64,000 nucleotides of DNA from Planctomycetota bacterium (GTDB lineage Bacteria; Planctomycetota; UBA8108; UBA1146), in the NCBI GenBank assembly GCA_036125855.1, contig JAYZTT010000017.1, forward strand, positions 21,323 to 85,322, in the 5' to 3' direction. Of the stretch, positions 4,482 through 30,713 are shown one piece after another. Position numbers and translations under genes: made by a program. Within the stretch, counting starts at the first letter, position 1; each line of letters opens with the position of its first letter. The notes under the pieces were generated by a model. The model did no database searches and was not told the DNA's origin. It saw only the letters and a program-made list of their open reading frames with translations.

Positions 4482-5090
4482 CTATCGACCGCGGCTGGCG
4501 AGTCGAACCAGATCCTCGGCACTGGTTTCGTCAGGGTATTCAGCAACCGTTTTCCTGACTCGATCCTGTGCATCGGAGAGCTGGAATCCGAGAACCTGCA
4601 GAGCTCGCACGGCATCGGCGGGAGCCCCTTCCGGAACTCCAACCGTCGCAGGAGATCCAGCCCTCGACGCCAGATCTTCCTTTTCCAGGGCACCACGCAG
4701 ATCGAGAACGATGCGCTGGGCGGTCTTTCGACCGATCCCTTTGACCTTCTCCAGCTCCTCGGTACGTCCTTCGAGAACCGCTTCTCGGAGACGTTCCTGG
4801 TCCACCTCGGACAGCAGGGCTATGGCACTGGCGGGGCCCACTCCCGAAACCTGGCAGATCTGTTCGAAGAAATCCCGTTCTTCCGGCCGGGAAAAACCGA
4901 ACAGGACCATCTGTTCCTCGCGAATTCGATGGGAAATGAAGATACGCGCACGAGAACCGACGCGAAGTTTCTCGAGAGTACCTGCTGGCGCTCGCAGCCG
5001 GTGCCCTACTCCGGATACCTCCAGCACAACAGACTGTGCGGTGATTCGGACCACTTCTCCCGAAAGATATTCGTACAAATCAAACCTCAC
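4482..5090 (-). CDS. ruvA: Holliday junction branch-migration complex subunit RuvA
   Basis: YEYLSGEV..LEVSGVGHRL..LFGFSRPEERDFFEQICQVSGVGPASAIALLS..LEKVKGIGRKTAQRIVLDLRG is collinear with RuvA (OB fold, two HhH, domain III). GTG start overlaps the stop of the upstream gene by 1 nt. Confidence 0.9.
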   Translation of the reverse strand: MRFDLYEYLSGEVVRITAQSVVLEVSGVGHRLRAPAGTLEKLRVGSRARIFISHRIREEQMVLFGFSRPEERDFFEQICQVSGVGPASAIALLSEVDQERLREAVLEGRTEELEKVKGIGRKTAQRIVLDLRGALEKEDLASRAGSPATVGVPEGAPADAVRALQVLGFQLSDAQDRVRKTVAEYPDETSAEDLVRLASRGR

Positions 5091-6358
5091 TAGCCACTAG
5101 AGAGATTCAATCCTCGCTCGTTGAGTTTTTTCTTCACCTCATTGAGGGAGGTGACGCCAAAATTCTTCTGGCTCACCAGTTCAAGTTCATTGCGCTGCAG
5201 CAGATCAGCGATCGTCTCGATCTCGAGCCGATCCATGCACCTCTGACTCCTGCTGGAAAGTTCCAGGATACTGACCGGTTCTCCAAGCAAGGAAGCGGCT
5301 TCTCCATTGACTGTCAGGAGTCTGGTGTCGTCACTGCGGACTCCTTCTCCCAGTCGAAGGTTCTTCTGATTGAGGATCTTCCGGATCTCCTGGAGACTCG
5401 TTTCTCCAAAGTTCTTGTAGGAGAGCAACTCTGCCTCGGACTTGCTGACCAGATCTCCAAGGGTAAAAATTCCCATCTTCTGGAGACAGTTCCGGGACCG
5501 TACCGACAGTTCGAATTCGGTGACCGGAATCTGCAAGACCTGCTGTTTGCGGATATCCTCTTTCTCTTTATCGCGATCGTAGTACATCGACTGAGAAGCC
5601 TCTGCATCGCGCAGGTACAGTTTTGCCCGGCGGTGATTCGGATTGGAGAGCAGAACCATTCGATAACAGGTGATTGCTTCCTCGAACCGATCCGCGTCCT
5701 CGTAGAGGACCCCGAGATTGACCATCGCATGTGCATACAGAGGAGCGGTTCTCTGACACATCCTGTACGCTTCGATGGCTTTCTCTTCATCTCCGTAGAG
5801 GGAGTGCATGTAACCGAGCCGGAACTGGTATCGGGTCTCTTCCGGATTCCCCTCTGCAGCGTCACTGTAGCAAACCAGAGCTTCCTCATACTCTCCCTCA
5901 TGCTGATGCAACAATCCGCGCAGATAACGAATTCTCGGGTGATCCTGTGGAGCAGAGATGTCACTGAAAATCTCACGTGCTCTTTCCACCTCCCCCTCGA
6001 GAATCAATGCTTCGCAGTAGAGCATCCCCACGCGTGGTTCATTCGATCCGTGATTCCATCCTGGATCGAGCACCTTGAGTGCTTGCTCTGAATTCCCCTC
6101 TTCAAGGAGCAATTTACCGAGCAGGTGCATACACAGAGGATTGCTCTGGCAACGAGCCAGGACATCTCTCGCATCGACTCTACGACCGAGCAGGTCGAGA
6201 ACCACTCCCCGGCGAAAATCATCCTCGATGGAATCGAGAAGCTCTTCCAGTTCGTCGATCCCATCCCGGCGAGAGGTCACCCCTTGCCGCGCTTCATGAT
6301 AGAAATCAACACTCGTCTGAGTCTCGAGAATGAGTTCTCGTAGAGAAGACTGGTTCAT
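5090..6358 (-). CDS. TPR-repeat protein with two C-terminal RNA polymerase alpha-subunit CTD-like (HhH) domains
   Basis: TPR-like helical repeats (e.g. AIEAYRMCQRTAPLYAHAMVNLGVLYEDADRFEEAITCYRMVLLSNPNH). These are followed by two alpha-CTD-like units: IPVTEFELSVRSRNCLQKMGIFTLGDLVSKSEAELLSYKNFGETSLQEIRKIL and ILELSSRSQRCMDRLEIETIADLLQRNELELVSQKNFGVTSLNEVKKKL. The ORF is open to 6475; ATG 6358 (MNQSSLREL) is preferred. Confidence 0.8.
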   Translation of the reverse strand: MNQSSLRELILETQTSVDFYHEARQGVTSRRDGIDELEELLDSIEDDFRRGVVLDLLGRRVDARDVLARCQSNPLCMHLLGKLLLEEGNSEQALKVLDPGWNHGSNEPRVGMLYCEALILEGEVERAREIFSDISAPQDHPRIRYLRGLLHQHEGEYEEALVCYSDAAEGNPEETRYQFRLGYMHSLYGDEEKAIEAYRMCQRTAPLYAHAMVNLGVLYEDADRFEEAITCYRMVLLSNPNHRRAKLYLRDAEASQSMYYDRDKEKEDIRKQQVLQIPVTEFELSVRSRNCLQKMGIFTLGDLVSKSEAELLSYKNFGETSLQEIRKILNQKNLRLGEGVRSDDTRLLTVNGEAASLLGEPVSILELSSRSQRCMDRLEIETIADLLQRNELELVSQKNFGVTSLNEVKKKLNERGLNLSSG

Positions 6359-6693
6359 AGAACTATTGGAACTCAAGGATGCCCCCTCGATGTCGAATTG
6401 ATGAAAACTACTAAGGATGACCGACCAAACTGCAGCGAAACCACACCCCACCGACTTTCCTCGGAAAAACTGCAAAAATCGGCGGAAGTTGACGTAGGAT
6501 CATAAGTAACGCTAAACGCCGCGTCAACGCGAACAAGCCGCCCAGAACCCCATCGCTTTCCTTGCCTGCCTCCCCGGTTGCATAGAATATGGCATCTGGG
6601 CCGTCACCGATACCGCTAGTGGCCCACAGGAGATCGTCAAAGTGGCCTCACAACCCCTTGCCGTGGCACAACCTCGGTAGATTTGGAAGATCG

Positions 6694-13975: not shown

Positions 13976-14235
13976 TAGCCCTTCTGCGAGATCGAAATCT
14001 CCCCCATTCGCGACCCTTGAGATCGATATCAATGGCTTCCAGCCCCCCTCAAACCCCACTCGCAACATCAACTCCGCGGGACTACAATCGAGGTAGCCCC
14101 GCCCCATGACATTCTGAGATCTACACGATGAGGCTCATGAGCCGCCCTTGTCGGTCGATTTTCTGTCAAGGGTCGGTAGGTTGGGCAACGATCAGATTTA
14201 ACTTCATGTCCCGCAAGACACTGAAAGGGGACTTC

Positions 14236-16641
14236 ATGTCTCGTAATCCAAATGGACTGGTGCCGCAATTCCTGCTGCTGGGTTTGACGGTCCTGTGCAT
14301 CTCGACCAGCCCGGTTCTTGCTCAATGCGATCCCGGTGGTGGTATGGGAGGAAATGGAGCCGACGTGATCGTGGGCGAGTTGACCGGTACCCAGAGCTAT
14401 GGAAATTCCGGTGGCTATTACGCCTTTTCGGTCGGTACCACTTCCTGCAACATCGGCACCGAGGAACTGCTCTGGATCGCCAGCACCAATGAACATCCGG
14501 TGATCGGTCAGAACATGTTCCGTCTCAAAGATGGAACCTTCGAGCAGATCGGAATGAGCTGGCTAAAGCACGGCTTCACTGCTTTGCAGGGAAACACTTG
14601 CGGCTGTGGCTGCGTTTCTTCCGGAACCGGATCCCGACTGGGAGTCGGATGCTCGGATCCCTATGGCGCCGGTCTCAACGGAAGTCAGGGAAGCCTTGGC
14701 TCTCGTTCTGAAGTCACCGATCCTGCTCACGGAATCTTCATCTATCCCCAGGTGATGGATCCCAGCAACCTGGATCTGACCTATCGCCGCTTGCGGGTTC
14801 ACGGCAACGATCTGAATCCCACTCTCAACAGTGGTGCCACCTACTTCGTCGAGGGCCATTACATCACCCCAGACGACGCAGCAGCAGGCAATCATCACAA
14901 CAACACCAGCTATCGCCAGATCACCGTCTCCGCCAGCACCAGTAACCACTCCATCGCCTTCACCGGATCCACCCAACGCCAGCAGCCAGGGATCCAGGCG
15001 TGGCAGGACAACGATCCGAGCGTGACCCTGGTCGACATCGATGACGGAAACGATGGGCTGCTGATTCTTGGCTACAAGGTCACCCAGCAAACGGCAAACC
15101 TGTGGCAATACGAATATGCCCTCTACAACATGGATTCGACCCGTTCGGTGCGCAGTTTCTCGCTGCCATTGCTCGGTGTTGTCGCCAGTGACATCGGTTT
15201 CCACGATGTCGAATACCACAGTACCGAAGTCTATGACGGCACCGACTGGGCGGTTTCGACTGCCGGCGGAGAAATCAGCTGGAGCACTTCGACCTTCGCT
15301 CAGAACAGCAATGCCAACGCTCTGCGCTGGGGAACGATGTACAACTTCCGCTTCGTCACCACTTCTGCGCCGACCAATGCCAACGCAACCCTCGGTCTGT
15401 TCACAACGGGAGGTTCCGTACTGGTACCGATCTTGGCACCGATGGTCGGCAATCTCGACTGCAACAACAACGGGATTCCCGATGCCGATGAAATCGCCAA
15501 CGGAGCTTCCGATTGTGATTCGAATGGCCTGCTCGATGAATGTCAGGACGACTGCGATAACGACGGTGTGGCGGACGCCTGCGAACTGATCAACGGAGCG
15601 CTCGACTGCGACGGAGATTTCATACCTGACACCTGTCAGATCTCCAGTGGTGCTGCCGACTGTGATTTCGATGGAGTTCTCGACAGCTGTGAAATCAGTC
15701 AGGGCACCGAGACCGACTGCGACCTCAACGGCACCATCGATAGCTGTCAAATCGCCGCCAATCCAGATAGCGATTGTGACAACAATGGTGTGCTCGATTC
15801 TTGCGAAGCGGCGGGGATCTTCTCCTTCGTTGACAACGTCGTGCCACCGGCTCCCATCTCCAGTTCCGATCCCCCGGTGGTGAGAACCATCAACGTCGAC
15901 CAGATCGGACTCGTTGATGACGTCGATGTCCTGATCGAGCTGAACCACACCTGGATCGGCGATCTCACCATCTCCCTGGTCAATCCCTCGGGAACCAACG
16001 TTGCGCTTCACAGCCAATCAGGTGGAGATGCCGACGACATCAATACCGTTTACGACGATGACGGTGGTGCCGGCACCACTTCCCCCGCCTCACCACTCTC
16101 TGGCTTCGATGGCCAGAATGCGCTGGGGAACTGGACCTTGACGGTCGCCGACACCGTCGGTGGAGATTCCGGTGTACTGAACGTCTGGGGACTCGACATC
16201 GCCATCGCCGGCGCTGGCCTCCCCGATTGCAATAACAATGGAATTCATGACGGTTGCGAGCTTTCTGCAGCCAACGACTGCAACAACAATGGCGTTCTCG
16301 ACGAGTGTGACATCTCATCGGGCACCAGCACCGATACCAATAACGATGGCATTCCAGACGAGTGCGGTGGAGTCACCTACGTTACTGGTGATACCAACGC
16401 TGACGGCAGCCATGACATCAGTGACGCGGTGAATATCCTCACCTACCTGTTTGGAGGCGGACAGATCACATGCCTCGCTTCCCTCAACAACAACGGGGAC
16501 AACTCTGTGGATATCTCCGACGTGGTATACCTGCTCGTGTACCTGTTTGACGGTGGAGCCAATCCGGCCGCACCCTTCCCGGCCTGTGGTCTGGGCGGTG
16601 CCTCTGGACTCAGCTGCGACTCCTTCAACTCCTGCCCCTGA
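14236..16641 (+). CDS. Large secreted protein: conserved Cys-containing N-domain, DCDxNGxxDxC calcium-binding-like repeats, proprotein-convertase P-domain, dockerin-like C-terminal module
   Basis: Signal peptide MSRNPNGLVPQFLLLGLTVLCISTSPVLAQ. About 10 repeats of DC(D/N)xNGxxDxC (15451-15815). P-domain VDDVDVLIELNHTWIGDLTISLVNPSGTNVALHS...GNWTLTVADTVGGDSGVLNVWGLDI (about 15880-16205). Tail GDTNADGSHDISDAVNILTYLFGGG... The ORF is open from 14128; other candidate starts are 14206 and 14236. Confidence 0.8.
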   Translation: MSRNPNGLVPQFLLLGLTVLCISTSPVLAQCDPGGGMGGNGADVIVGELTGTQSYGNSGGYYAFSVGTTSCNIGTEELLWIASTNEHPVIGQNMFRLKDGTFEQIGMSWLKHGFTALQGNTCGCGCVSSGTGSRLGVGCSDPYGAGLNGSQGSLGSRSEVTDPAHGIFIYPQVMDPSNLDLTYRRLRVHGNDLNPTLNSGATYFVEGHYITPDDAAAGNHHNNTSYRQITVSASTSNHSIAFTGSTQRQQPGIQAWQDNDPSVTLVDIDDGNDGLLILGYKVTQQTANLWQYEYALYNMDSTRSVRSFSLPLLGVVASDIGFHDVEYHSTEVYDGTDWAVSTAGGEISWSTSTFAQNSNANALRWGTMYNFRFVTTSAPTNANATLGLFTTGGSVLVPILAPMVGNLDCNNNGIPDADEIANGASDCDSNGLLDECQDDCDNDGVADACELINGALDCDGDFIPDTCQISSGAADCDFDGVLDSCEISQGTETDCDLNGTIDSCQIAANPDSDCDNNGVLDSCEAAGIFSFVDNVVPPAPISSSDPPVVRTINVDQIGLVDDVDVLIELNHTWIGDLTISLVNPSGTNVALHSQSGGDADDINTVYDDDGGAGTTSPASPLSGFDGQNALGNWTLTVADTVGGDSGVLNVWGLDIAIAGAGLPDCNNNGIHDGCELSAANDCNNNGVLDECDISSGTSTDTNNDGIPDECGGVTYVTGDTNADGSHDISDAVNILTYLFGGGQITCLASLNNNGDNSVDISDVVYLLVYLFDGGANPAAPFPACGLGGASGLSCDSFNSCP

Positions 16642-17493: not shown

Positions 17494-19887
17494 ATGAAGG
17501 TTCTGAAGCAACTCCTCTGCGCGCTCGTCATCGCGATGATCCACGTCACGTTGTTCGCCCAGAATCCCGTGATCCTGCACAGCGTCGCCAGCCCGTTTGA
17601 CGATCACCACTACCTGTTACTCGATGCCAGTAGCTGGACCGAGGCGGAAGCGCAAGCCAACGCCTGGGGTGCCAATCTGGTCGCGGTCGGGGATCAAGCA
17701 GAGATGGATTTCATTCACGACAACTTCAGCGCCTTTCAGGGTACCGGTCGGCGACTGTGGCTGGGACTCAACGACATCGCCATCGAGGGTGTATTCGAGT
17801 GGAGTAACGGAGAAACGCTCACCTACACCGACTGGAACGCTGGCGAACCCAATAACTCCGGCAATGAGGATATGGTCCATACCCTCGAGAACCCGCCATA
17901 TCTGTGGAATGACATCAATGAGGGAACCAATCCTGTCAACACCTATGGCATCGTCGAGCTGGAAACGTGTGGATATACGGGACCCGATGCGATCATCTCA
18001 AACTCGGTCGGCCCCGACATCGTTCTGGAGTTCACCAACAACGGGCCCTACACCGACACCTTCGACATCTGGCGCGATGGTCAGTTCTATCAGAGTATCA
18101 CCGACCCGGCAGCGACCAGCTGGACCGACACCAACGTCTGTCAGGGTCGCTATGAGTACATCATCGTTGTCTCGGATGGCGCCTGCTTCACCTTCACCGA
18201 GTCCATCGATGTATTCCATGGCTTCGATCTCTATGCCAGCACTGACCCGCCGCTACCGATCCCCAATAACGATCCGATCGGAGTGACCTCCGTCGTCAGC
18301 ATCACCGACAACTACATCATCCAGGATGTCGATGTGGAAGTGCACATCTTCCACACATGGACACGGGAAGTGGGCATCGATATCTTTCACCCCTCGACCA
18401 CCCTCGTCACTCTCAAGCAGTATGTGGCCGGCTCCCCCAGTGATGTGAATCACATTCATACCGTCTTCGACGACCAGGGGATTCCGTTCGATGAGGATCA
18501 GATCCCGCTCGATATTCACATGCAACCGCAGGGGCCCGGGACACTCTTTGACTTCGCCGGCCTACCCATCGATGGCGACTGGAGATTGACCGTCACCGAC
18601 AACGATGGTGCCGAGACGGGACAGCTGGAAAACTGGTCAATTCATCATCTGGATGGGCCACCATGCCAGCTGACTCCCCCGAGTTCGTTCAGCTCCTCCA
18701 GTAACGGTCCCGAGGTGACTCTGACCTGGGATCTCAACGGGAACTTCTACACCGACATCGAGGTACTGAGAAACGGTCAACTGGTCGAAACCATCGACGG
18801 CAGCGACCAGCAGTGGAGCGAGGTGGTCCAGGGCGGACCCGCTTATTACAGCTATCAATTGCGCTGTCTGGACAACTCCATAACACCTTGCTGTGTCATC
18901 GACAGCGCTACCGTGGGCGCACTTGTGAATGCAGTCGATGTGGTCTGGGCAGCCGAGGGTAGCGGAGGCAATATCGACTCCGCCACCGCCATCGCCGATG
19001 CTCTGGTCCTCAATGGGCTCAATCCGGCGGTGATGCCCGAGATTCTCTCCTGCAATTGCCTGCTCTCTTCGCCCGATTTACAGCGGGTGTGGGTCGCCTC
19101 GGGGACCTACCCTGATTACCACTGCATGACCACTGCAGAGGGAACGCTCCTGGCCGAACTCATCGCCAACGGAATCGATGTCTATGTCGAGGGTGGTGAT
19201 GTCTGGGGATTCTGTCCTCAGACTCCCTTCGCCGACTGGGATGGCATCGGAGATGGAGTCGTCGACGGTGATGATACCCTGCTCGACCTGATTGGACTCT
19301 CCTACGACATCCTCGACCTGACCGGAATGGATGCCGCCTACAACCAGGATCAAGTCGGCAGCGATTGGACCGATCGCCTGGTTGCTGCCGATCCCTTGAC
19401 ACCGGATCAGGCCGGCATCAGCAGTGGCGCCATCTGGCAACAATCGGGAATCGGCTACAGCACCGGCAACTTCTACGCGACCGACGATCCCTATGGTGAG
19501 GTACTGACACAGTCGTGGGAATTTGGTGGTTACAGCGCGGAACAGGGCGTGCTGATGGGGATTTACCTGGAAGCGATCGGGGCCACCGGTGGTCCGCCGC
19601 AGGAGATCTTCCGTCGTGGCGATGTCAACTCTGACACGGGAGTCAATATCGCCGATGCGGTGCGACTGCTGAACGGGCTTTTCGTTCCCGGTTCGCCTCA
19701 ACCGGAGTGCTATGATAGTGCCGACGTCAATGACGACGGTTCGAGCAACGTGGCGGATGCTGTCTACCTGCTCGGTGCACTGTTCATCCCGGGCTCACCG
19801 AATCCTCCGCCACCGGGCCTTCAGAACTGCGGGCCCGATCCGACCGATGACAACCTCGATTGCGCAAAGTACGAGGTATGTTCCTAG
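17494..19887 (+). CDS. Secreted C-type lectin domain protein with proprotein-convertase P-domain and dockerin-like C-terminal module
   Basis: Signal MKVLKQLLCALVIAMIHVTLFAQ. CTLD: SWTEAEAQANAWGANLVAV..RRLWLGLND..EGVFEWSNGE..YTDWNAGEPNN..EDMV..WNDI (about 17600-17965). P-domain IIQDVDVEVHIFHTWTREVGIDIFHPS...GDWRLTVTDNDGAETGQLENWSI (about 18250-18650). Tail RGDVNSDTGVNIADAVRLLNGLF... Confidence 0.85.
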   Translation: MKVLKQLLCALVIAMIHVTLFAQNPVILHSVASPFDDHHYLLLDASSWTEAEAQANAWGANLVAVGDQAEMDFIHDNFSAFQGTGRRLWLGLNDIAIEGVFEWSNGETLTYTDWNAGEPNNSGNEDMVHTLENPPYLWNDINEGTNPVNTYGIVELETCGYTGPDAIISNSVGPDIVLEFTNNGPYTDTFDIWRDGQFYQSITDPAATSWTDTNVCQGRYEYIIVVSDGACFTFTESIDVFHGFDLYASTDPPLPIPNNDPIGVTSVVSITDNYIIQDVDVEVHIFHTWTREVGIDIFHPSTTLVTLKQYVAGSPSDVNHIHTVFDDQGIPFDEDQIPLDIHMQPQGPGTLFDFAGLPIDGDWRLTVTDNDGAETGQLENWSIHHLDGPPCQLTPPSSFSSSSNGPEVTLTWDLNGNFYTDIEVLRNGQLVETIDGSDQQWSEVVQGGPAYYSYQLRCLDNSITPCCVIDSATVGALVNAVDVVWAAEGSGGNIDSATAIADALVLNGLNPAVMPEILSCNCLLSSPDLQRVWVASGTYPDYHCMTTAEGTLLAELIANGIDVYVEGGDVWGFCPQTPFADWDGIGDGVVDGDDTLLDLIGLSYDILDLTGMDAAYNQDQVGSDWTDRLVAADPLTPDQAGISSGAIWQQSGIGYSTGNFYATDDPYGEVLTQSWEFGGYSAEQGVLMGIYLEAIGATGGPPQEIFRRGDVNSDTGVNIADAVRLLNGLFVPGSPQPECYDSADVNDDGSSNVADAVYLLGALFIPGSPNPPPPGLQNCGPDPTDDNLDCAKYEVCS

Positions 19888-19902: not shown

Positions 19903-21471
19903 ATGCTGCACGGGTACAACCTCAAGCGGATCCTGTTTGTGTCACTTCTACTGCTGTGCTGCGGAAGCAGTGGTGCCATCGCACAGGTGATCCTTCATAC
20001 CGACGACCAGGCATCCTCCGGTAGCAATACGGCTCATAACATGGTGCGCAATGGCAACGGTGAACTGTACGTGCTGTCACTGGAACGGACCCCCAATGGT
20101 GAGACACCCCTGATCGTGCAGCAGTCCACCGATGGAGGTTCCACCTGGACCACCCTGCCCCAGAACCTCAATGATGCCGACAGCGGACTCCTCGGCCCCG
20201 ATCCAGCGAGTCACTGCTCGATGGCCATCGACGATCAGGGAATCCTCCACGTGCTCTGGGGACGTTACACCTACCCATCCTATTTCCGTCAGTTCTACCG
20301 TCGCTACGATCCGGTCACCGGTTTTCGCTCCGACATCGTCGAGATCAGCACCGTGACCGGTGCCCCCCTCAACTCCCGAACATCAGCGATGGACATCCTC
20401 ATCGATGGTAACAACACGGTGTGGATTGCCGGCCACCACCCATCGAGCTGGGTCGACCATCTGCTGCGGAGCGATCAGCCCTATGCAGCGGATGATGCGT
20501 TCACCGATCTGGGTCCGATCAGTCCCGCCAATAGTGCTCAGAACTCCAGACTGGCTGTCGATACCGGCGGCAGGATCCACTGCACCTTCTACCGCAACGT
20601 CGGAGAAGGACAGTACGAACACCGGATCTATGACCCCCCGAGCGGAGCCTGGCAGCTCGACACCTTCGTTCTGGGCAACACCGACGGCACCAACGATTTT
20701 TTCGGCTGGGTCTCGGCGGACGGTCTGGGATCGGTTCACTGTGCCTACGTCGTCGATGCTTTCTCCTCATCGCCACTGTGGAGTTTCCGTTACCGGAGCT
20801 GGGATGAGATCAATGGCTGGAGCGATGAGACGATTCTGTTTGAAGCGACCACCGCTCAATTCACCAACATCGCCAGTTACAAGATCTTCAACATCGGCTG
20901 TGACGAGAGCAACGGCACCGTGTATGCCGTCTACCGCGATCTTTCAGCCGAAGGCGAACTGGTGCTGGCAGAAAAGACCCCGACTTCACCCGACTTCATC
21001 ATTTCACAGCAGTTGCAGCCAACAAATCTCGGAGAGCACGCATACACCTATCCGACGCTTCGTGGCACCCTCTACCCATCTTTCAACAACACCAGCCATG
21101 GCATTGACCTCACCTACCAGTGGCGCGAGTTCCCTGGCTCTCCCCCCTACTCACTGGTTTATCACGACGCATCGGTCGGCTCGGTGATTCGATTCATCCG
21201 TGGGGATACCAACCAGGACGGAAGTTACAACGTCGCCGACATCGTATTCGGTCTCAACTCGCTATTCGTACCGGGAGGTGTCAGCCCCGCCTGTATCGAG
21301 AGTTGCGACATCAATGACGACGAATCCTTCAACATCGCCGACATGGTGTTTGGATTGAATTCGCTGTTTGTGCCCGGATCTCCAGCGCCTACGGCACCGT
21401 ATCCCGCTTGTGGTCAGGATCCCATCGGTGGCACTCTCGATTGCCCCGCCAGCAGTCCCGCCTGCCCCTAG
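19903..21471 (+). CDS. Secreted BNR/Asp-box (sialidase-like beta-propeller) protein with dockerin-like C-terminal module
   Basis: Signal MLHGYNLKRILFVSLLLLCCGSSGAIAQ. Asp-box QSTDGGSTWT. Tail RGDTNQDGSYNVADIVFGLNSLFVPGG...INDDESFNIADMVFGLNSLFVPGS... Confidence 0.8.
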   Translation: MLHGYNLKRILFVSLLLLCCGSSGAIAQVILHTDDQASSGSNTAHNMVRNGNGELYVLSLERTPNGETPLIVQQSTDGGSTWTTLPQNLNDADSGLLGPDPASHCSMAIDDQGILHVLWGRYTYPSYFRQFYRRYDPVTGFRSDIVEISTVTGAPLNSRTSAMDILIDGNNTVWIAGHHPSSWVDHLLRSDQPYAADDAFTDLGPISPANSAQNSRLAVDTGGRIHCTFYRNVGEGQYEHRIYDPPSGAWQLDTFVLGNTDGTNDFFGWVSADGLGSVHCAYVVDAFSSSPLWSFRYRSWDEINGWSDETILFEATTAQFTNIASYKIFNIGCDESNGTVYAVYRDLSAEGELVLAEKTPTSPDFIISQQLQPTNLGEHAYTYPTLRGTLYPSFNNTSHGIDLTYQWREFPGSPPYSLVYHDASVGSVIRFIRGDTNQDGSYNVADIVFGLNSLFVPGGVSPACIESCDINDDESFNIADMVFGLNSLFVPGSPAPTAPYPACGQDPIGGTLDCPASSPACP

Positions 21472-21480
21472 GCAGCACCA

Positions 21481-22395
21481 TCACTGATCGGCGTGCAAGC
21501 CAAGGGCTCGCTTGAGCCCGGCGATGTTCTTGTAGTCGTCCCAGTAGCGATAGAGCACCCGGTGATTCGGGTCGATGATGACCAGATCACCCGGCCAGGC
21601 TGCATCATAGTCATCGACGATCTTGACCTGTCGGCGACCATCGATCTTGACCCGGATGAATCCATCAACCAGCTTTTTAATCTCCTCGTCTTCTGTCAGC
21701 AGCTTGTGAATTCTCTCGGTCTGGGTACACCCCTCCGCTTCGATGAACAGTAATCGATTGCCCCAGGTCCATTGTGATTCATCGAGGCCCTTGTCAAAGT
21801 CGAGCCAGTGAATCGGAGGTGGTGGTGGATCGATCCCGGCTTTTCTGAGCAGATCATCAAGCCATTGACGATCGAAACCTGATTTGGAGCGCTTCCTCGG
21901 AAGAATGCCCTGCCATAGCACCTTGCCCTGGGAATCGAGGAAGAACGCCGAAGGATAATAAATCACTCCATGACGCTCCTGATTGGCAGTGCCATCGACC
22001 AGAAGTGGAAACGTAACTTTGTTCTTATCGACGAGTTTCTGAGCGGGTTTTGAATTTTTTGAGGAGTGAGAAAAGATGGTAAGGATCGAAAGATATTCGG
22101 GACCCAGTTCTCGATGCCACCTGACCAGGCTTGGCAATGCGGGAGCGCAAGACTCTCAACCAGGGATCGTATAGACGATCAGTTGCGGTTTTCCTCGCAA
22201 GCTCGCCAGTCGAAGATTCTGGTGGCTGTTGATCCAGCGACCGCCCTCCTCGACTACCAACTCCGGCAACTCCTTTCCAAGGTGTGAAACGCGAAAGGTC
22301 TCGCGATTCTGCTCCTGAGCAGATAGCTGCTCCGGAATCAGCGTCGAGGAGAGGGAAAGGGCGGCCACCAGAATCCAAGAAGTTGGCATCACCAT
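21481..22395 (-). CDS. Periplasmic TlpA/redoxin-like thiol:disulfide oxidoreductase, candidate selenoprotein (in-frame UGA at 22158-22156), plus a second thioredoxin-like C-terminal domain
   Basis: Track ORFs 22156..22494 and 21481..22137 are in the same frame, separated only by TGA plus six sense codons. Joined: signal MVMPTSWILVAALSLSSTLIPEQLSAQ, then LRGKPQLIVYTIPG-[UGA]-ESCAPALPSLVRWHRELGPEYLSILTIF...KVTFPLLVDG...YYPSAFFLDSQGKVLWQG. This is the TlpA/ResA pattern, with UGA where the first Cys of WCxxC sits. AAGGAGG lies 6 nt before ATG 22395. If UGA is a true stop, this is a pseudogene or two ORFs. Confidence 0.6.
22116..22135 (-). promoter_or_regulatory. Candidate bacterial SECIS hairpin
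   Basis: mRNA GCC(AA)GCCU-GGUC-AGGUGGC: 7 bp with a 2-nt bulge and apical loop GGUC. The stem starts 20 nt and the loop 29 nt after the UGA. The spacing and G-first loop are compatible with described bSECIS constraints. Confidence 0.45.
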
Positions 22396-22452
22396 CGTTC
22401 CCTCCTTGCCCAGTGGACGAACTGGGCAGTCCTGTTGTTCCTGAAATCGGCC

Positions 22453-22487
22453 AAAAAAAGTGGCCCTGAGGAAAACCCCAGGGCCAC
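22453..22487 (-). terminator. Intrinsic terminator after the MFS transporter gene
   Basis: 9-bp stem GTGGCCCTG/CAGGGCCAC (22460-22468/22479-22487), followed on the minus strand by U7 (A-run 22453-22459 on plus). Confidence 0.75.
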
Positions 22488-22511
22488 TCCTCACTCGTTT
22501 CCGGATCTCAT

Positions 22512-27068: not shown

Positions 27069-27893
27069 ATGACTCGCGGAACCATCCCCTTTATCAAGGC
27101 ACACGGTGCTGGCAACGACTTCATCGTACTCGATGAGCAACAGAGCCCGATCCCTGAGGATCTTTGCCAGCTCGCCCCCGGACTCTGTTGTCGGCGAACC
27201 GGTGTCGGGGCTGACGGAATCCTGGTGATTCGCCGCGCCAACCCGATCCCGGCGATGGAATGCTGGAACTCTGACGGAAGCCGGGCCGAGGCGTGTGGCA
27301 ACGGACTTCGGGTGATTTCTCTCATCCTATCCGACGGGCAGGAGGGAGATTCAACCATCGACACCGATGCCGGACGGGTGCGGGTTCAGCAGCAATCGAT
27401 CGATGGGCAGTTTGCCGCCGAAGCAGACCTCGGCCTGGCACAGGTCGACAGTCCCCGCAGTTTTTCAGTGGCGGACACGACACTCGAGGCGATTCCGGTC
27501 AACATCGGCAATCCCCACCTTGTCGTTCTCATCGATCCGGACGCAACAACCGATCCGGTGCGAAGATTCGGGCCAACTCTGGAATATTCCGTAGCCACCC
27601 GGGCAAACGTCGGATTCGTACGCATCGAGGCAAGAGACCGGCTGGTTCTTCGCGTCTGGGAACGAGGCTGCGGAGAAACTCTCGCCTGCGGCACCGGCGC
27701 GGCAGCAGCTTTCGCGGCTCTTCAGCAACGAGGAGTCATCGCCGAGACGGTACTGGTCCAGATGCCGGGAGGCTTCCTGCGTGTTCGGGCTGGTGAGCAG
27801 GGAGATCTTCATGTCCAGGGGCCCGCGCGCATCTCTTTTGCGGGTCAGTTGAAGTTGCCGGAAGAGAACTCGACCTTGAACAGCTCGTCCTAA
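27069..27893 (+). CDS. dapF: Diaminopimelate epimerase
   Basis: FIKAHGAGNDFIVLDE, SRAEACGNGLRV, NIGNPHLVVL, GETLACGTGAAAA (both catalytic Cys motifs). GGAGG precedes ATG 27069; the ORF is open from 26847. Confidence 0.9.
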   Translation: MTRGTIPFIKAHGAGNDFIVLDEQQSPIPEDLCQLAPGLCCRRTGVGADGILVIRRANPIPAMECWNSDGSRAEACGNGLRVISLILSDGQEGDSTIDTDAGRVRVQQQSIDGQFAAEADLGLAQVDSPRSFSVADTTLEAIPVNIGNPHLVVLIDPDATTDPVRRFGPTLEYSVATRANVGFVRIEARDRLVLRVWERGCGETLACGTGAAAAFAALQQRGVIAETVLVQMPGGFLRVRAGEQGDLHVQGPARISFAGQLKLPEENSTLNSSS

Positions 27894-28981
27894 TCGATCT
27901 CGACACCCTGACCCGAGACGATCTCACCGATGATCTGGGCCTGTTCTCCGACACTGCCGAGGTGAGTCACCACCGCATCGGCTTGCTCGGACGCAACGAC
28001 CACAACCATGCCGATCCCCTGATTGAAAACCCGATCCATCTCCGAGGTTGCCACCTGACCTCGCTGTTCGATCAACGAAAAGATCGGCGGTCGTGACCAG
28101 TTCTCCCGCAGCAACTGCGCGCCCATTCCCGACGGCAACACTCGTGGAATGTTTTCGATGAGACCGCCACCGGTGATGTGGGAGATGGCATGAATCCCGC
28201 CGCTAAATTGCTCCAGCAGCGACAGGATCGGTTTGACATAGATGCGGGTCGGTTCGAGGAGTATCTGGCCGAGAGTCGCACCCAGTCCACCCGGATCCTG
28301 GTCGAGAGATAGAGCATCTTCCCCCTCGAGTAACGCCTTCCTGACCAGCGAAAATCCATTGGAGTGAACCCCACTGGAGGAGATTCCGATCACCGCATCT
28401 CCGAGGTTGACCTTCGAGCCATCGACGATGGCCCCTCGTTCCACGACTCCGACCGAGAATCCAGCCAGATCAAACTCGTCGGCACTGTAAAACCCAGGCA
28501 TCTCGGCGGTCTCACCGCCCAGCAGTGCACAGCCACTCTGCCGGCAACCTTCAGCAATCCCCTCCACCACCACTGCAATCGCTTCCGGTTCGATCTTTCC
28601 GGTCGCTACGTAGTCGAGGAAGAAGAGCGGCCGGGCTCCTCCCACTACCAGGTCGTTGACACACATCGCCACCAGATCGATGCCGACGGTACCGAACTCT
28701 CCGGTAGCAAATGCGATTTTCAGTTTGGTTCCGACCCCATCGGTTGCCCCGACCAGAATCGGATCGCGAACTTCAGAACCAAACAGAGATCCATCTCCAT
28801 CGAGCAATCGAAAGAAACCGCCGAAGGCCCCATGGGATCCACTCAGCACCCGTTCGTCCTGGGTCGAGACCACGGCTTCACGGATCCGTTGAACCACGGC
28901 ATTCCCTGCGTCGATGTCCACTCCTGCGTCTCGATATGTCAGGCCCTCTTCGGCTGGCTTGACCGGTATCTCATCCACCAT
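27890..28981 (-). CDS. purM: Phosphoribosylformylglycinamidine cyclo-ligase (AIR synthetase)
   Basis: LTYRDAGVDIDAGN..GAFGGFF..LVGATDGVGTKL..DLVAMCVNDL..FFLDY..GGETAEMPG..GISSSGVHSNGFSL. The ORF is open to 29023; ATG 28981 (MVDEIPV) is preferred. The stop overlaps the dapF stop (convergent). Confidence 0.9.
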   Translation of the reverse strand: MVDEIPVKPAEEGLTYRDAGVDIDAGNAVVQRIREAVVSTQDERVLSGSHGAFGGFFRLLDGDGSLFGSEVRDPILVGATDGVGTKLKIAFATGEFGTVGIDLVAMCVNDLVVGGARPLFFLDYVATGKIEPEAIAVVVEGIAEGCRQSGCALLGGETAEMPGFYSADEFDLAGFSVGVVERGAIVDGSKVNLGDAVIGISSSGVHSNGFSLVRKALLEGEDALSLDQDPGGLGATLGQILLEPTRIYVKPILSLLEQFSGGIHAISHITGGGLIENIPRVLPSGMGAQLLRENWSRPPIFSLIEQRGQVATSEMDRVFNQGIGMVVVVASEQADAVVTHLGSVGEQAQIIGEIVSGQGVEID

Positions 28982-29552
28982 GAGCGGCTTCCTCTCTCTG
29001 AACTTCCCACAGCCATTTCTCATCCAGATCGAATCGCTTCAGGCGACGTCGACTCCGGCGAGCGCGAGAATCATCCCCGAGACAGCGTGAAACCTGCCAG
29101 TCGAGAAACAGTAGATCAATATCTCGATCATCATTTACCAGACCACTATCGAGAGCGGCACGCGCTCTCAGCATTCGACCGCGCAGATAGCATCGCTGAG
29201 CATCGTCGAGAGCTCGTTCAACCCTTCGCCGGATCACACGTCGACGTGTCGGTGAGGTGATCCGGTAGGTCCACAGGGCACTGACCAGGGTGCTGACCAC
29301 TCCAAGCGCTGCTCCCGTCAGCTGAGTCTGTTCTCGATCCGGTCCGGCCCAGACGGTCGATCCGGCGACAAGCAAAACCCAACCGGTTCCGCCGAGAAAG
29401 AACAGCGCCAGACCCCTCTGGACTCTCCCCAGCAGGATCGGGCCGAGCCCGGGAATCACCGATAAGATCAAGAGAATTGCCCGCAATGCTCGCTCCTCCT
29501 GCATCCCTACCGTTATCGACCAGCCATCTGCTCCGCCAGTGTATCGTGCCAC
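28971..29552 (-). CDS. Hypothetical membrane protein (two or three TM helices, Arg-rich C-terminal half)
   Basis: ILLILSVIPGLGPILLG, LALFFLGGTGWVLLVAG, GAALGVVSTLVSALW. The start may instead be ATG 29504 (MQEERAL). Confidence 0.5.
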   Translation of the reverse strand: MARYTGGADGWSITVGMQEERALRAILLILSVIPGLGPILLGRVQRGLALFFLGGTGWVLLVAGSTVWAGPDREQTQLTGAALGVVSTLVSALWTYRITSPTRRRVIRRRVERALDDAQRCYLRGRMLRARAALDSGLVNDDRDIDLLFLDWQVSRCLGDDSRARRSRRRLKRFDLDEKWLWEVQREEAAHGG

Positions 29553-29615: not shown

Positions 29616-30713
29616 ATGAACCGAGCCGATTCCCCTACCCCCGATCCCGGCACCCTGCGAACCCTCGACGCAGCATTCAATCGGCTCATCGAGGCGATGA
29701 GGGTGATCGAAGATCAACTGCGATTCCGCCACCATCGTGAGGTCATCTGCCGCCGTTGGCAATCTCTTCGTCGCCAGACCGGCCAACTTCGTGGCAAGGT
29801 GGAAGAGTCGCTGGGGCCCCTGGCCTGTCATCGAGATGTCGCAGGAGATCGGTTGAGGAACGCCCCCGGCGCTGAAGACCATCAAAACCACACGGCGCTG
29901 ATGGCTGCCAATACCTCTCGAGCGCGTGAAGCCAGTCGATCAGTCGAAGAAACGATGCGCCTGCTCTTGCCGCAGCAATCAGCTGCTGCCCAGGTGATCC
30001 GCTATGACATCTATCAACTTGAGGCCATCACAACCGCCCTTGAGTTGAGAGGACCCCGGCTCGAAGGTCGAGATCTTTATGTACTGGTGACCGAAAGTCT
30101 GTGCCACGGCAACCTCCTCGATACAACCATCGCAGCCATCGAGGGCGGTGCCCGGATCGTTCAGCTCAGAGAGAAGGAGCAGCCCCCGTCGAAAGTTCTC
30201 GAAATTGCCCGACAGTTGCGGGAGATCACCGAACAGCGAAATGCCCTGCTCATCATCAACGACTCCATCGAGATCGCTCATCTGAGCGGAGCCGATGGGG
30301 TGCATCTGGGTCAAGAAGATATTGCACCTCATGAAGCCCGTCGGCTACTCGGCCCCGATGCGATCATCGGCCTGTCGACCCATCGACCCGAGCAAGCCGC
30401 GGCAGCCGCCGCTCAGGGGGCAGACTATATCGGGGTCGGGCCCATCTTTGAAACCGCCACCAAGCTCCACCGGGAGGCGGCCGGAACCGAGTACATCCGC
30501 CAGGCTCAGGAGGTCTGCGAATTGCCGGGCTTCGCCATCGGACATATCGATTCCGGAACCATCGATCAGGTAATCGCCGCGGGAGCGCAACGAATCGCGG
30601 TTTGCACCGGCATCATCAGCCAGCCCGATCCTGCTGCAGCAGCTCGATGGCTGGCGGACAGACTCACCCAGCAACGCTCCGTGGAGGTCCTCGATGACAC
30701 CCTCGGAAGCTGA
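29616..30713 (+). CDS. thiE: Thiamine-phosphate synthase with ~150-aa N-terminal extension
   Basis: LYVLVTE..AIEGGARIVQLREK..LIINDSIEIAHLSGADGVHLGQEDI..IGLSTH..GADYIGVGPIFET.TK matches ThiE. The N-terminal helical domain is of unknown role. Confidence 0.8.
   Translation: MNRADSPTPDPGTLRTLDAAFNRLIEAMRVIEDQLRFRHHREVICRRWQSLRRQTGQLRGKVEESLGPLACHRDVAGDRLRNAPGAEDHQNHTALMAANTSRAREASRSVEETMRLLLPQQSAAAQVIRYDIYQLEAITTALELRGPRLEGRDLYVLVTESLCHGNLLDTTIAAIEGGARIVQLREKEQPPSKVLEIARQLREITEQRNALLIINDSIEIAHLSGADGVHLGQEDIAPHEARRLLGPDAIIGLSTHRPEQAAAAAAQGADYIGVGPIFETATKLHREAAGTEYIRQAQEVCELPGFAIGHIDSGTIDQVIAAGAQRIAVCTGIISQPDPAAAARWLADRLTQQRSVEVLDDTLGS

Follow-up and report, generated by a model that had tools for sequence, protein, structure and literature searches.

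A probable TlpA-like selenoprotein of marine Planctomycetota, split by gene callers at an in-frame UGA codon

Two adjacent minus-strand open reading frames (ORFs) in a 64,000-nucleotide (nt) stretch of Planctomycetota DNA (assembly GCA_036125855.1, contig JAYZTT010000017.1, positions 21,323 to 85,322; the whole stretch is called the window here, and coordinates count from its first letter) very probably belong to a single selenoprotein gene. As judged from sequence comparison, this gene would depend on a selenocysteine insertion sequence (SECIS), an RNA hairpin that would direct the insertion of selenocysteine (Sec) at an internal UGA codon. The favoured reading, held with high confidence, is that 21481..22395 (-) is one gene, encoding an exported two-domain thiol-disulfide oxidoreductase of marine Planctomycetota with Sec as its nucleophile.

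The two ORFs, 22156..22494 and 21481..22137, share one reading frame. Between them lie TGA (22158-22156) and the six sense codons GAG TCT TGC GCT CCC GCA, after which comes TTG at 22137. An earlier note, made from the letters of the window before any comparison with other genomes, had described this arrangement; its positions and its reading of the letters proved accurate throughout, and its interpretation is supported. Translation probably starts at the ATG at 22395-22393, which stands 5 nt past the Shine-Dalgarno sequence AAGGAGG that the same note had called strong. Read through, the product of the 304-codon gene is ...LRGKPQLIVYTIPG-U-ESCAPALPSLVRWHRELG..., with the residues ...IVYTIPG-U-ESCAPALPSLVR around Sec80. 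An intrinsic terminator with a U7 tail separates the gene from that of an upstream MFS transporter, again as the note had proposed. The coordinates of all features are collected in Table 1.

Conservation of the UGA codon and of the reading frame

A protein search returned three clusters, all of 217-218 amino acids (aa) and all equivalent to the C-terminal fragment of the selenoprotein. On the contigs of these clusters, a 77-aa ORF is followed by 18 nt and then by the fragment, in frame and with TGA at the homologous codon. A scan of GTDB species genomes and another of JGI metagenomes contributed 16 more loci. The orthologue set comprises 19 distinct gene sequences, including that of the window, and represents at least six species of metagenome-assembled genomes (MAGs) as well as many metagenomes. 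The 18 other sequences are 47-86% identical to the window protein at the aa level, and wherever a locus has a named organism, it is a marine Planctomycetota MAG (NAT2, UBA1146 and others).

TGA occupies codon 80 in 19/19 distinct sequences, and there are no other stops or frameshifts. The question raised earlier, of whether orthologues stop at this TGA or decay, is thereby answered: they do neither, and all keep the TGA with their frames intact. By the Nei-Gojobori method, the ratio of nonsynonymous to synonymous substitution rates (dN/dS) is 0.10-0.50 over the 48 codons before the TGA and 0.05-0.34 after it, with dS at 0.5-2.5 throughout. Purifying selection thus acts before the TGA as well as after it, and both halves are therefore translated and selected in this frame.

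A pseudogene would offer a different account, in which the active-site codon has suffered a nonsense mutation and the 218-aa ORF is either non-functional or expressed alone from TTG. Gene callers and public records do show the 218-aa fragment only. However, the same TGA is shared by 19 divergent sequences that carry no other lesion, the 5' part is itself under purifying selection, and the RNA hairpin downstream, described below, is conserved; a split would moreover cost the thioredoxin fold its first strands and its active site. The comparative data effectively refute the pseudogene, whose remaining probability is negligible. On these sequence comparisons, pseudogene decay and sequencing error can both be regarded as excluded, the latter because the same TGA is present in independent assemblies.

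It could also be that UGA is reassigned or read through genome-wide or regardless of context (as Trp, as Gly or by leaky termination), with neither SECIS nor Sec. However, TGA serves as the true stop more often than any other codon in the window, ending 19 of the 31 genes with Pfam or NCBIfam family support, including the selenoprotein gene itself, so recoding must be local. Among the in-frame TGAs of the window, only codon 80 is followed by a GGUC hairpin at a SECIS-like distance in a plausible frame, and the residue aligned with it in homologues is Cys, not Trp or Gly. The chance of such a reassignment is accordingly minute.

The SECIS-type hairpin

In the candidate SECIS, a GGUC tetraloop (22123-22126) caps an upper stem (GCCU/AGGU), which a 2-nt bulge in the 5' strand (22131-22132) sets off from a lower stem (UGCC/GGCA). 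The loop starts 29 nt downstream of the UGA. The earlier note had recognized the core of this hairpin (22135-22116) and a G-first loop at the same distance; the full hairpin spans 22136-22115. Published distances from UGA to apical loop range over 16-37 nt (PMC10778597), and the 29-nt spacing lies within that range, with G residues in the loop. All orthologues fit the consensus ...UUGCC-NA-GCCU-GGUC-AGGU-GGCA... after the UGA, and its variable N, the third base of a Pro codon, is located in the bulge.

A conserved hairpin in the orthologues was another expectation of the earlier note, and the element is indeed kept beyond what the protein needs and covaries in distant relatives. The four codons at positions +9 to +12 (Ser AGC, Leu CUG, Val GUC and Arg AGG), although 4- to 6-fold degenerate, are represented by one codon each in 19/19 sequences. 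Over the whole gene, only eight of the 60 columns with an invariant residue and at least 4-fold degeneracy use a single codon, and four of these eight are the consecutive columns +9 to +12. Elsewhere in the gene, 39-61% of conserved degenerate codons differ from those of the window.

Applied to 15 distinct sequences (alignment A4), RNAalifold returns exactly the bulged hairpin, with 8 pairs. Pair counting gives 91% paired cells, as against 24-61% when the partners are slid, and only 1 of 500 shuffles reaches the observed covariation score. Compensatory changes occur at pairs 31-38 and 24-43. In the distant relatives L026 and L028, CUG/AGG is replaced by UUG/AAG, a change from C-G to U-A in the stem, and the lower stem of L028 also has G-C changed to C-G; the outermost pair is U-A, U-G or G-C across the family. 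The loop starts exactly 29 nt after the UGA in all Sec forms examined (the window group, L024/25, L026/27, L028 and L029), and its sequence is GGUC in each except L029, which has UGGACC with the GG kept.

The layout resembles that of the SECIS of Escherichia coli fdhF, the upper part of which is GG-U-UGCA-GGUC-UGCA-CC. Each element has GGUC as its apical tetraloop, four base pairs in the upper stem, a 5'-strand bulge and a G/C lower stem, and each lies inside the ORF directly past the UGA. In fdhF, by contrast, the loop starts 18 nt after the UGA and the bulge is a single U, rather than the 29 nt and the 2-nt bulge (NA) of the window gene, and the stem sequences are unrelated. The fdhF SECIS (TGACACGGCCCATCGGTTGCAGGTCTGCACC...) was checked against 5,426 E. 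coli genomes, where it was found in fdhF with at least 99% identity in 5,413 records.

The Sec/Cys pair and the domain architecture

A hidden Markov model profile of the C-terminal fragment, used in an exhaustive search of 1.84 billion representatives, matched 230 proteins at E<=1e-3. The full-length matches (~160-220 aa) are like TlpA, carry a signal peptide and show the pattern ...F-G-F-x-x-C-x-x-C-x-x-x-x-P-x-L-x-x-W.... Seventeen Cys forms were listed. With Sec masked as X, the masked position aligns with the first Cys of CxxC in 11/11 Cys homologues (alignment A5), in agreement with the earlier placement of the UGA at the nucleophilic Cys of that motif. In this alignment the U/C column, C57 and P122 (query numbering) are invariant or nearly so, and the second Cys and the cis-Pro (YYPSAF) are invariant in the alignment with the Cys forms.

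When Sec is written as Cys, the first domain matches the Pfam family PF00578 (AhpC-TSA) over aa 57-160 with 33.2 bits, above the gathering cutoff of 26, and PF08534 (Redoxin) with 23.9 bits, just under the cutoff of 26.6. The TlpA/ResA/AhpC-TSA thioredoxin fold recognized from the sequence alone is thus borne out. The closest entries in the PDB are the extracytoplasmic thioredoxins 4evm, 4hqs, StoA (3erw), DipZ and ResA, all of them distant, with E-values of 1e-5 to 6e-3, and WCSIC of the PDB sequence aligns with PG-C-ESC of the window protein.

It may be that the protein is a genuine selenoprotein but acts as a peroxidase, or as a partner in the repair of sulfenic acids or methionine sulfoxide, and not as a TlpA-type disulfide reductase. 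That the top Pfam match is AhpC-TSA would fit such a role, as would the presence among the closest PDB chains of 4evm and 4hqs, pneumococcal surface thioredoxins which presumably serve methionine sulfoxide reductase. However, the UxxC stands at the thioredoxin position and is not part of a peroxiredoxin PxxxTxxC/U motif, and the homologues are like TlpA, ResA, StoA and DsbE. A peroxidase or repair role is accordingly unlikely, and a periplasmic disulfide or sulfenate reductase is, by analogy with these homologues, the most likely identity of the protein.

In the profile search, distant homologues of the C-terminal region are Thioredoxin_7 domains. The window protein itself has a weak match to PF13899 at aa 201-253 (21 bits against a cutoff of 27), and the orthologue P0001 has a precomputed PF13899 assignment. 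Because its motif G-C-T-Q-T (CxxT) contains only one Cys, Cys223 (codon 21727-21729 (-)), this second domain has no resolving Cys. It had been described as thioredoxin-like, which holds, and as degenerate, which holds only in part, given that the Cys and the Gln of C-x-Q-[ST] are invariant. The same two-domain order is found in P0024, a Cys/Cys protein with the motifs WCSGC ... WCGWC.

The N-terminus is hydrophobic in every orthologue, and canonical n, h and c regions occur in the orthologues (for example, MEYRRRFAMAALIFSLFSSSEVAGQ and MKKLLSALVVAVLFINPISGQ); the n-region of the window protein has no basic residue.

Table 1. Features of the putative selenoprotein gene and its surroundings in the window
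Feature	Position	Strand	Description or basis
Intrinsic terminator of the upstream MFS-transporter gene	22453..22487	(-)	GC-rich hairpin + U7; -31.8 kcal/mol, z-score -4.96
Shine-Dalgarno sequence AAGGAGG	22401..22407	(-)	Direct sequence reading; 5 nt upstream of ATG 22395
Putative selenoprotein coding sequence	21481..22395	(-)	304 codons + TGA stop; single internal UGA, predicted to be read as Sec
Predicted N-terminal signal peptide, ~aa 1-26, MVMPTSWILVAALSLSSTLIPEQLSAQ	22318..22395	(-)	Suggested by the hydrophobic h-region
TlpA/ResA-like (AhpC-TSA/Redoxin) thioredoxin-fold domain, ~aa 57-175	21871..22227	(-)	PF00578, E 5.7e-8
UGA codon 80, predicted Sec, first position of the U-E-S-C redox motif	22156..22158	(-)	TGA in 19/19; aligns with first Cys of CxxC
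TGC codon 83, resolving Cys of UxxC	22147..22149	(-)	Invariant column
Candidate SECIS hairpin, UGCC-AA-GCCU-GGUC-AGGU-GGCA	22115..22136	(-)	RNAalifold, pair counts, frozen codons, fdhF-like layout
cis-Pro of thioredoxin fold (YYPSAF), CCT codon 148	21952..21954	(-)	Invariant in orthologues and Cys homologues
Proline-rich interdomain linker GIDPPPPPIH	21808..21837	(-)	P190-P192 and P194 conserved
C-terminal Thioredoxin_7-like domain, monothiol G-C-T-Q-T	21484..21807	(-)	PF13899, E 3.7e-4; C223 and Q225 invariant
TGA, true terminator of the selenoprotein gene	21481..21483	(-)	No SECIS-like hairpin after it

Sec-decoding machinery and points against the assignment

Several observations weigh against the assignment of a SECIS-dependent selenoprotein. 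The 64-kb window and ~200 kb of related loci contain none of selA, selB, selD and the gene for tRNA-Sec (selC), and no other selenoprotein gene was detectable in the window. A scan of 261 kb for the combination of an in-frame TGA, a hairpin with a GGU loop and a redox motif likewise found no selenoprotein genes outside the family described here, only a few out-of-frame chance matches. The isolated 28-nt hairpin is weak (-8.4 kcal/mol, z -1.3), its 76-nt context folds worse than shuffled sequences (z +1.6), and Rfam has no match around it, whether with gathering cutoffs or with E<=10. The stem is invariant at most of its positions, so the covariation comes from a few distant sequences only. At the protein level, the AlphaFold model of the C-terminal fragment is too poor for use (predicted local distance difference test score 47.7), and function, export and electron donor are assigned by homology only, with a best PDB E-value of 1e-5. 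As regards the folding energy, the validated mini-SECIS of E. coli fdhF is even weaker (-4.2 kcal/mol, z -0.7); because this element also fails the thermodynamic test, the weak energy of the window hairpin does not count against it.

The lack of selenium-specific machinery within the window would also suit a SECIS-directed insertion of Cys, whether by a SelB-dependent tRNA charged with Cys or because SelA or SelD is lacking, in which case recoding would yield an ordinary CxxC product. Recoding systems with a SelB-dependent, Cys-charged tRNA exist. However, the pattern of Sec and Cys forms, the UxxC at the redox nucleophile and the fdhF-like SECIS are together the usual signature of a true selenoprotein, and marine metagenomes contain hundreds of Prx-like UxxC selenoproteins as well as abundant SelD (PMC2398784). 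Planctomycetes with the machinery are also documented: four have full selA/B/C/D, and one Planctomycete has split-annotated selenoprotein candidates that include a thiol-disulfide isomerase-like thioredoxin, a peroxiredoxin and an AhpC/TSA protein (PMC4807772, tables S8 and S9). Insertion of Cys is thus very improbable, and Sec remains the favoured residue at codon 80.

One candidate for SelD, the AIRS/AIRS_C protein at 27893-29023 (-), was rejected: it is PurM, with 418 bits to TIGR00878 against a cutoff of 236. PurM belongs to the AIRS family, and a hasty search for Sec-decoding genes might take it for SelD. Its gene (27890-29023 (-)) adjoins that of a ThiD2/TMP-TENI fusion at 29616-30713 (+).

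Comparison with known families

Prx-like thiol:disulfide oxidoreductase selenoproteins are operationally defined by pfam00578 together with UxxC or UxxU (PMC9312934, PMC13188914). The window protein, with PF00578 and UxxC, belongs to this class of Zhang and Gladyshev, though by that definition alone. The class includes the "Prx-like 1" proteins of the Sargasso Sea and of the Global Ocean Sampling (GOS) data, in which 225 such UxxC selenoproteins were counted, and Prx-like selenoproteins fused to further domains that contain Cys are also described (PMC2398784). Shared features are a PF00578 thioredoxin fold above the cutoff, Sec as the first residue of UxxC, UxxU in a distant relative (L026), many Cys homologues and abundance in marine metagenomes (PMC2398784, PMC9312934). 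Compared with the class, the reference sequence of which is WP_010940744.1, the window lineage has its own C-terminal Thioredoxin_7-like CxxT domain and a Pro-rich linker. It is also confined, among loci with a named organism, to marine Planctomycetota MAGs, and its synteny is conserved.

The closest NCBIfam and PDB matches are to the TlpA/ResA/StoA/DipZ-C group (cd02966), with scores of 24-33 bits against family cutoffs of 170-300. The group and the window protein have in common a signal peptide, which in the window protein is predicted, the position of [W/G]-C-x-x-C at the N-terminus of helix alpha-1, the cis-Pro and the domain length. The window protein differs in having Sec for the nucleophilic Cys, PG-U-ESC instead of W-C-x-P-C, and an extra C-terminal domain. 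No NCBIfam model reaches its cutoff with the window protein, including those for ResA, StoA and DsbE. The top NCBIfam match is NF041054, a ResA-like WAxxUGC selenoprotein that likewise combines a TlpA/ResA-like fold with Sec; membership was rejected on the score (32.8 bits against a cutoff of 300) and on the motif, UGC (UxC) as opposed to YTIPG-U-ESC. A peroxiredoxin selenoprotein, defined by the TxxU motif (PMC13188914), was rejected as well, there being no PxxxTxxU/C: I-P-G precedes U, and there is no T or S three residues before it.

The wider family and the LV[R/K]W signature

Among the proteins found by the profile search are 37 N-terminally truncated representatives that start within a few residues of ...HLV[R/K]W.... 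LV[R/K]W itself is present in 32 of these, and a further three begin at MVKW, in keeping with it. The signature thus fits 35/37 truncated representatives as compared with 2/17 Cys forms (Fisher p 2e-9). At the DNA level, P0001-P0003, P0004, P0015 (U-E-T-U), P0026 and P0029 (LDRW, with the loop UGGACC) are all Sec forms. P0033 (LIKW) was considered as an exceptional Sec form and rejected; it is a Cys form with a mis-called start. In the distant relatives L024, L026/27, L028 and L029, too, the redox motif opens with TGA; it is UxxC in all but L026/27, which have UxxU.

From these sequences, the LV[R/K]W peptide appears to be imposed by the SECIS RNA, with xxG-GUC forming the loop and CUG/AGG or UUG/AAG the stem. 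The same comparisons indicate that the window gene is a member of a broad set of TlpA-like selenoproteins routinely split by gene callers.

Some relatives depart from the single-Sec arrangement. L028:2779-3701 (ENA ERZ28496113 ctg22352) is a distant two-domain relative with two in-frame TGAs, one giving U-P-P-C in the TlpA-like domain and the other falling where the CxxC of the Thioredoxin_7-like domain belongs (FYKDWPR-U-PTC), where it precedes a different hairpin, AAGAGC-AGUUC-GCUCUU. Judging from its sequence, L028 probably encodes a two-Sec protein with two unlike SECIS elements. The loci L026:2803-3330 and L027:273-800 (NCBI GCA_973514475.1 contig CCXVIG010000030.1) represent a single-domain relative with U-E-T-U, its TGAs three codons apart. 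Their hairpin, CCCACUU-GGUC-AAGUGGG, lies 29 and 20 nt downstream of the first and second UGA, respectively, and it may be that this single SECIS serves both.

P0093 (JGI 3300071358) is a Cys-form homologue, FLNCAACKEMAPHLVRWHRQYG, that retains the HLVRW peptide of the Sec forms. It may represent a recent conversion from Sec to Cys that still carries remnants of the SECIS. In L017, L018, L019 and L021, the signal peptide is separated from the domain by a tandem repeat of PAQVSA / APVSA units (in L017, for example, at ~2640-2720), the copy number of which varies between otherwise near-identical contigs.

Genomic neighbourhood

Synteny around the selenoprotein gene is kept: it is convergent with genes for a 512-523-aa protein without a family and for ~790-aa proteins with Lectin_C, P_proprotein and Dockerin domains. 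This convergent pair is seen in L001, L006 and L024, the contigs that reach that far. In the window, the block at 14128-16641 (+), 17494-19887 (+) and 19903-21471 (+) encodes large secreted proteins with P_proprotein, Lectin_C and Dockerin_1 domains together with a 522-aa protein without a family match, the C-terminus of which has the duplicated motif ...D(I/T)N(Q/D)D(G/E)S(Y/F)N(V/I)AD(I/M)VFGLNSLFVPG.... A functional link between the selenoprotein and its lectin and dockerin neighbours is speculation.

Farther away, the gene at 5090-6475 (-) encodes a 461-aa protein of unusual architecture: TPR repeats are joined to two copies of the C-terminal domain of the RNA polymerase alpha subunit (PF03118, 1.3e-38, in two stretches), and the N-terminal domain of that subunit is absent.

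Proposed mechanism

In the proposed mechanism, the in-frame UGA at codon 80 would be decoded and not read as a stop. The mRNA 20-43 nt past the UGA would fold into a bacterial SECIS of the bulged, GGUC-looped form described above, and this putative hairpin would recruit SelB and Sec-tRNA(Sec) to the ribosome. The hairpin would be encoded within the codons for L-P-S-L-V-R-W, at the predicted start of helix alpha-1. This overlap would account for the frozen state of these codons and for the fact that LV[R/K]W marks Sec forms across the family. The loop and upper stem match those of the fdhF SECIS, and E. coli might therefore be a suitable host for expressing the gene as a selenoprotein.

The predicted signal peptide would secrete the product. 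By analogy with TlpA, ResA and StoA, U-E-S-C would then cycle between the selenolate/thiol and selenenylsulfide states, reducing periplasmic disulfides or sulfenic acids, and we infer Sec insertion, export, the reductase direction and the substrates, as well as recharging by a membrane reductase of the CcdA/DsbD type as electron donor. The Thioredoxin_7-like domain probably binds or tethers the substrate, or forms a mixed disulfide with it.

Annotation status and significance

The 218-aa piece of the window gene is in the public record as MEC9476870.1, a "hypothetical protein" of a Planctomycetota bacterium. Orthologue records, also of 218 aa, are named "redoxin domain-containing" or "TlpA family protein disulfide reductase". 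Fragments of the window gene and its orthologues in public records measure 217-223 aa and do not include the active site. Public records thus hold fragments only. Recognition of the full gene corrects a systematic annotation error, in which the fragments bear the names "hypothetical", "redoxin domain" or "TlpA family".

The protein is a new subfamily of a well-known kind of selenoprotein and will not surprise a specialist. The current understanding of selenoproteins is unchanged, UxxC proteins of the thioredoxin fold being the commonest kind in the ocean. A bolder reading, tentative and a little short of an even chance, is that it is an uncatalogued, lineage-specific, two-domain periplasmic selenoprotein, perhaps the dedicated redox partner of the lectin, P-domain and dockerin proteins with which its gene is always convergent, and the tip of a larger TlpA-like set, which may comprise at least ~35 clusters at 50% identity. 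If this were true, LV[R/K]W together with a SECIS at 29 nt would provide a simple peptide and DNA signature for the rescue of mis-split genes, including members with UxxU or a second Sec.

Within the family, the finding points to a co-constraint of SECIS and protein, in which the RNA element would fix LV[R/K]W in the Sec forms and the peptide is relaxed in the Cys forms. For the uncultured marine Planctomycetota, it would add to the lineage a comparatively validated selenoprotein and, by implication, Sec decoding.

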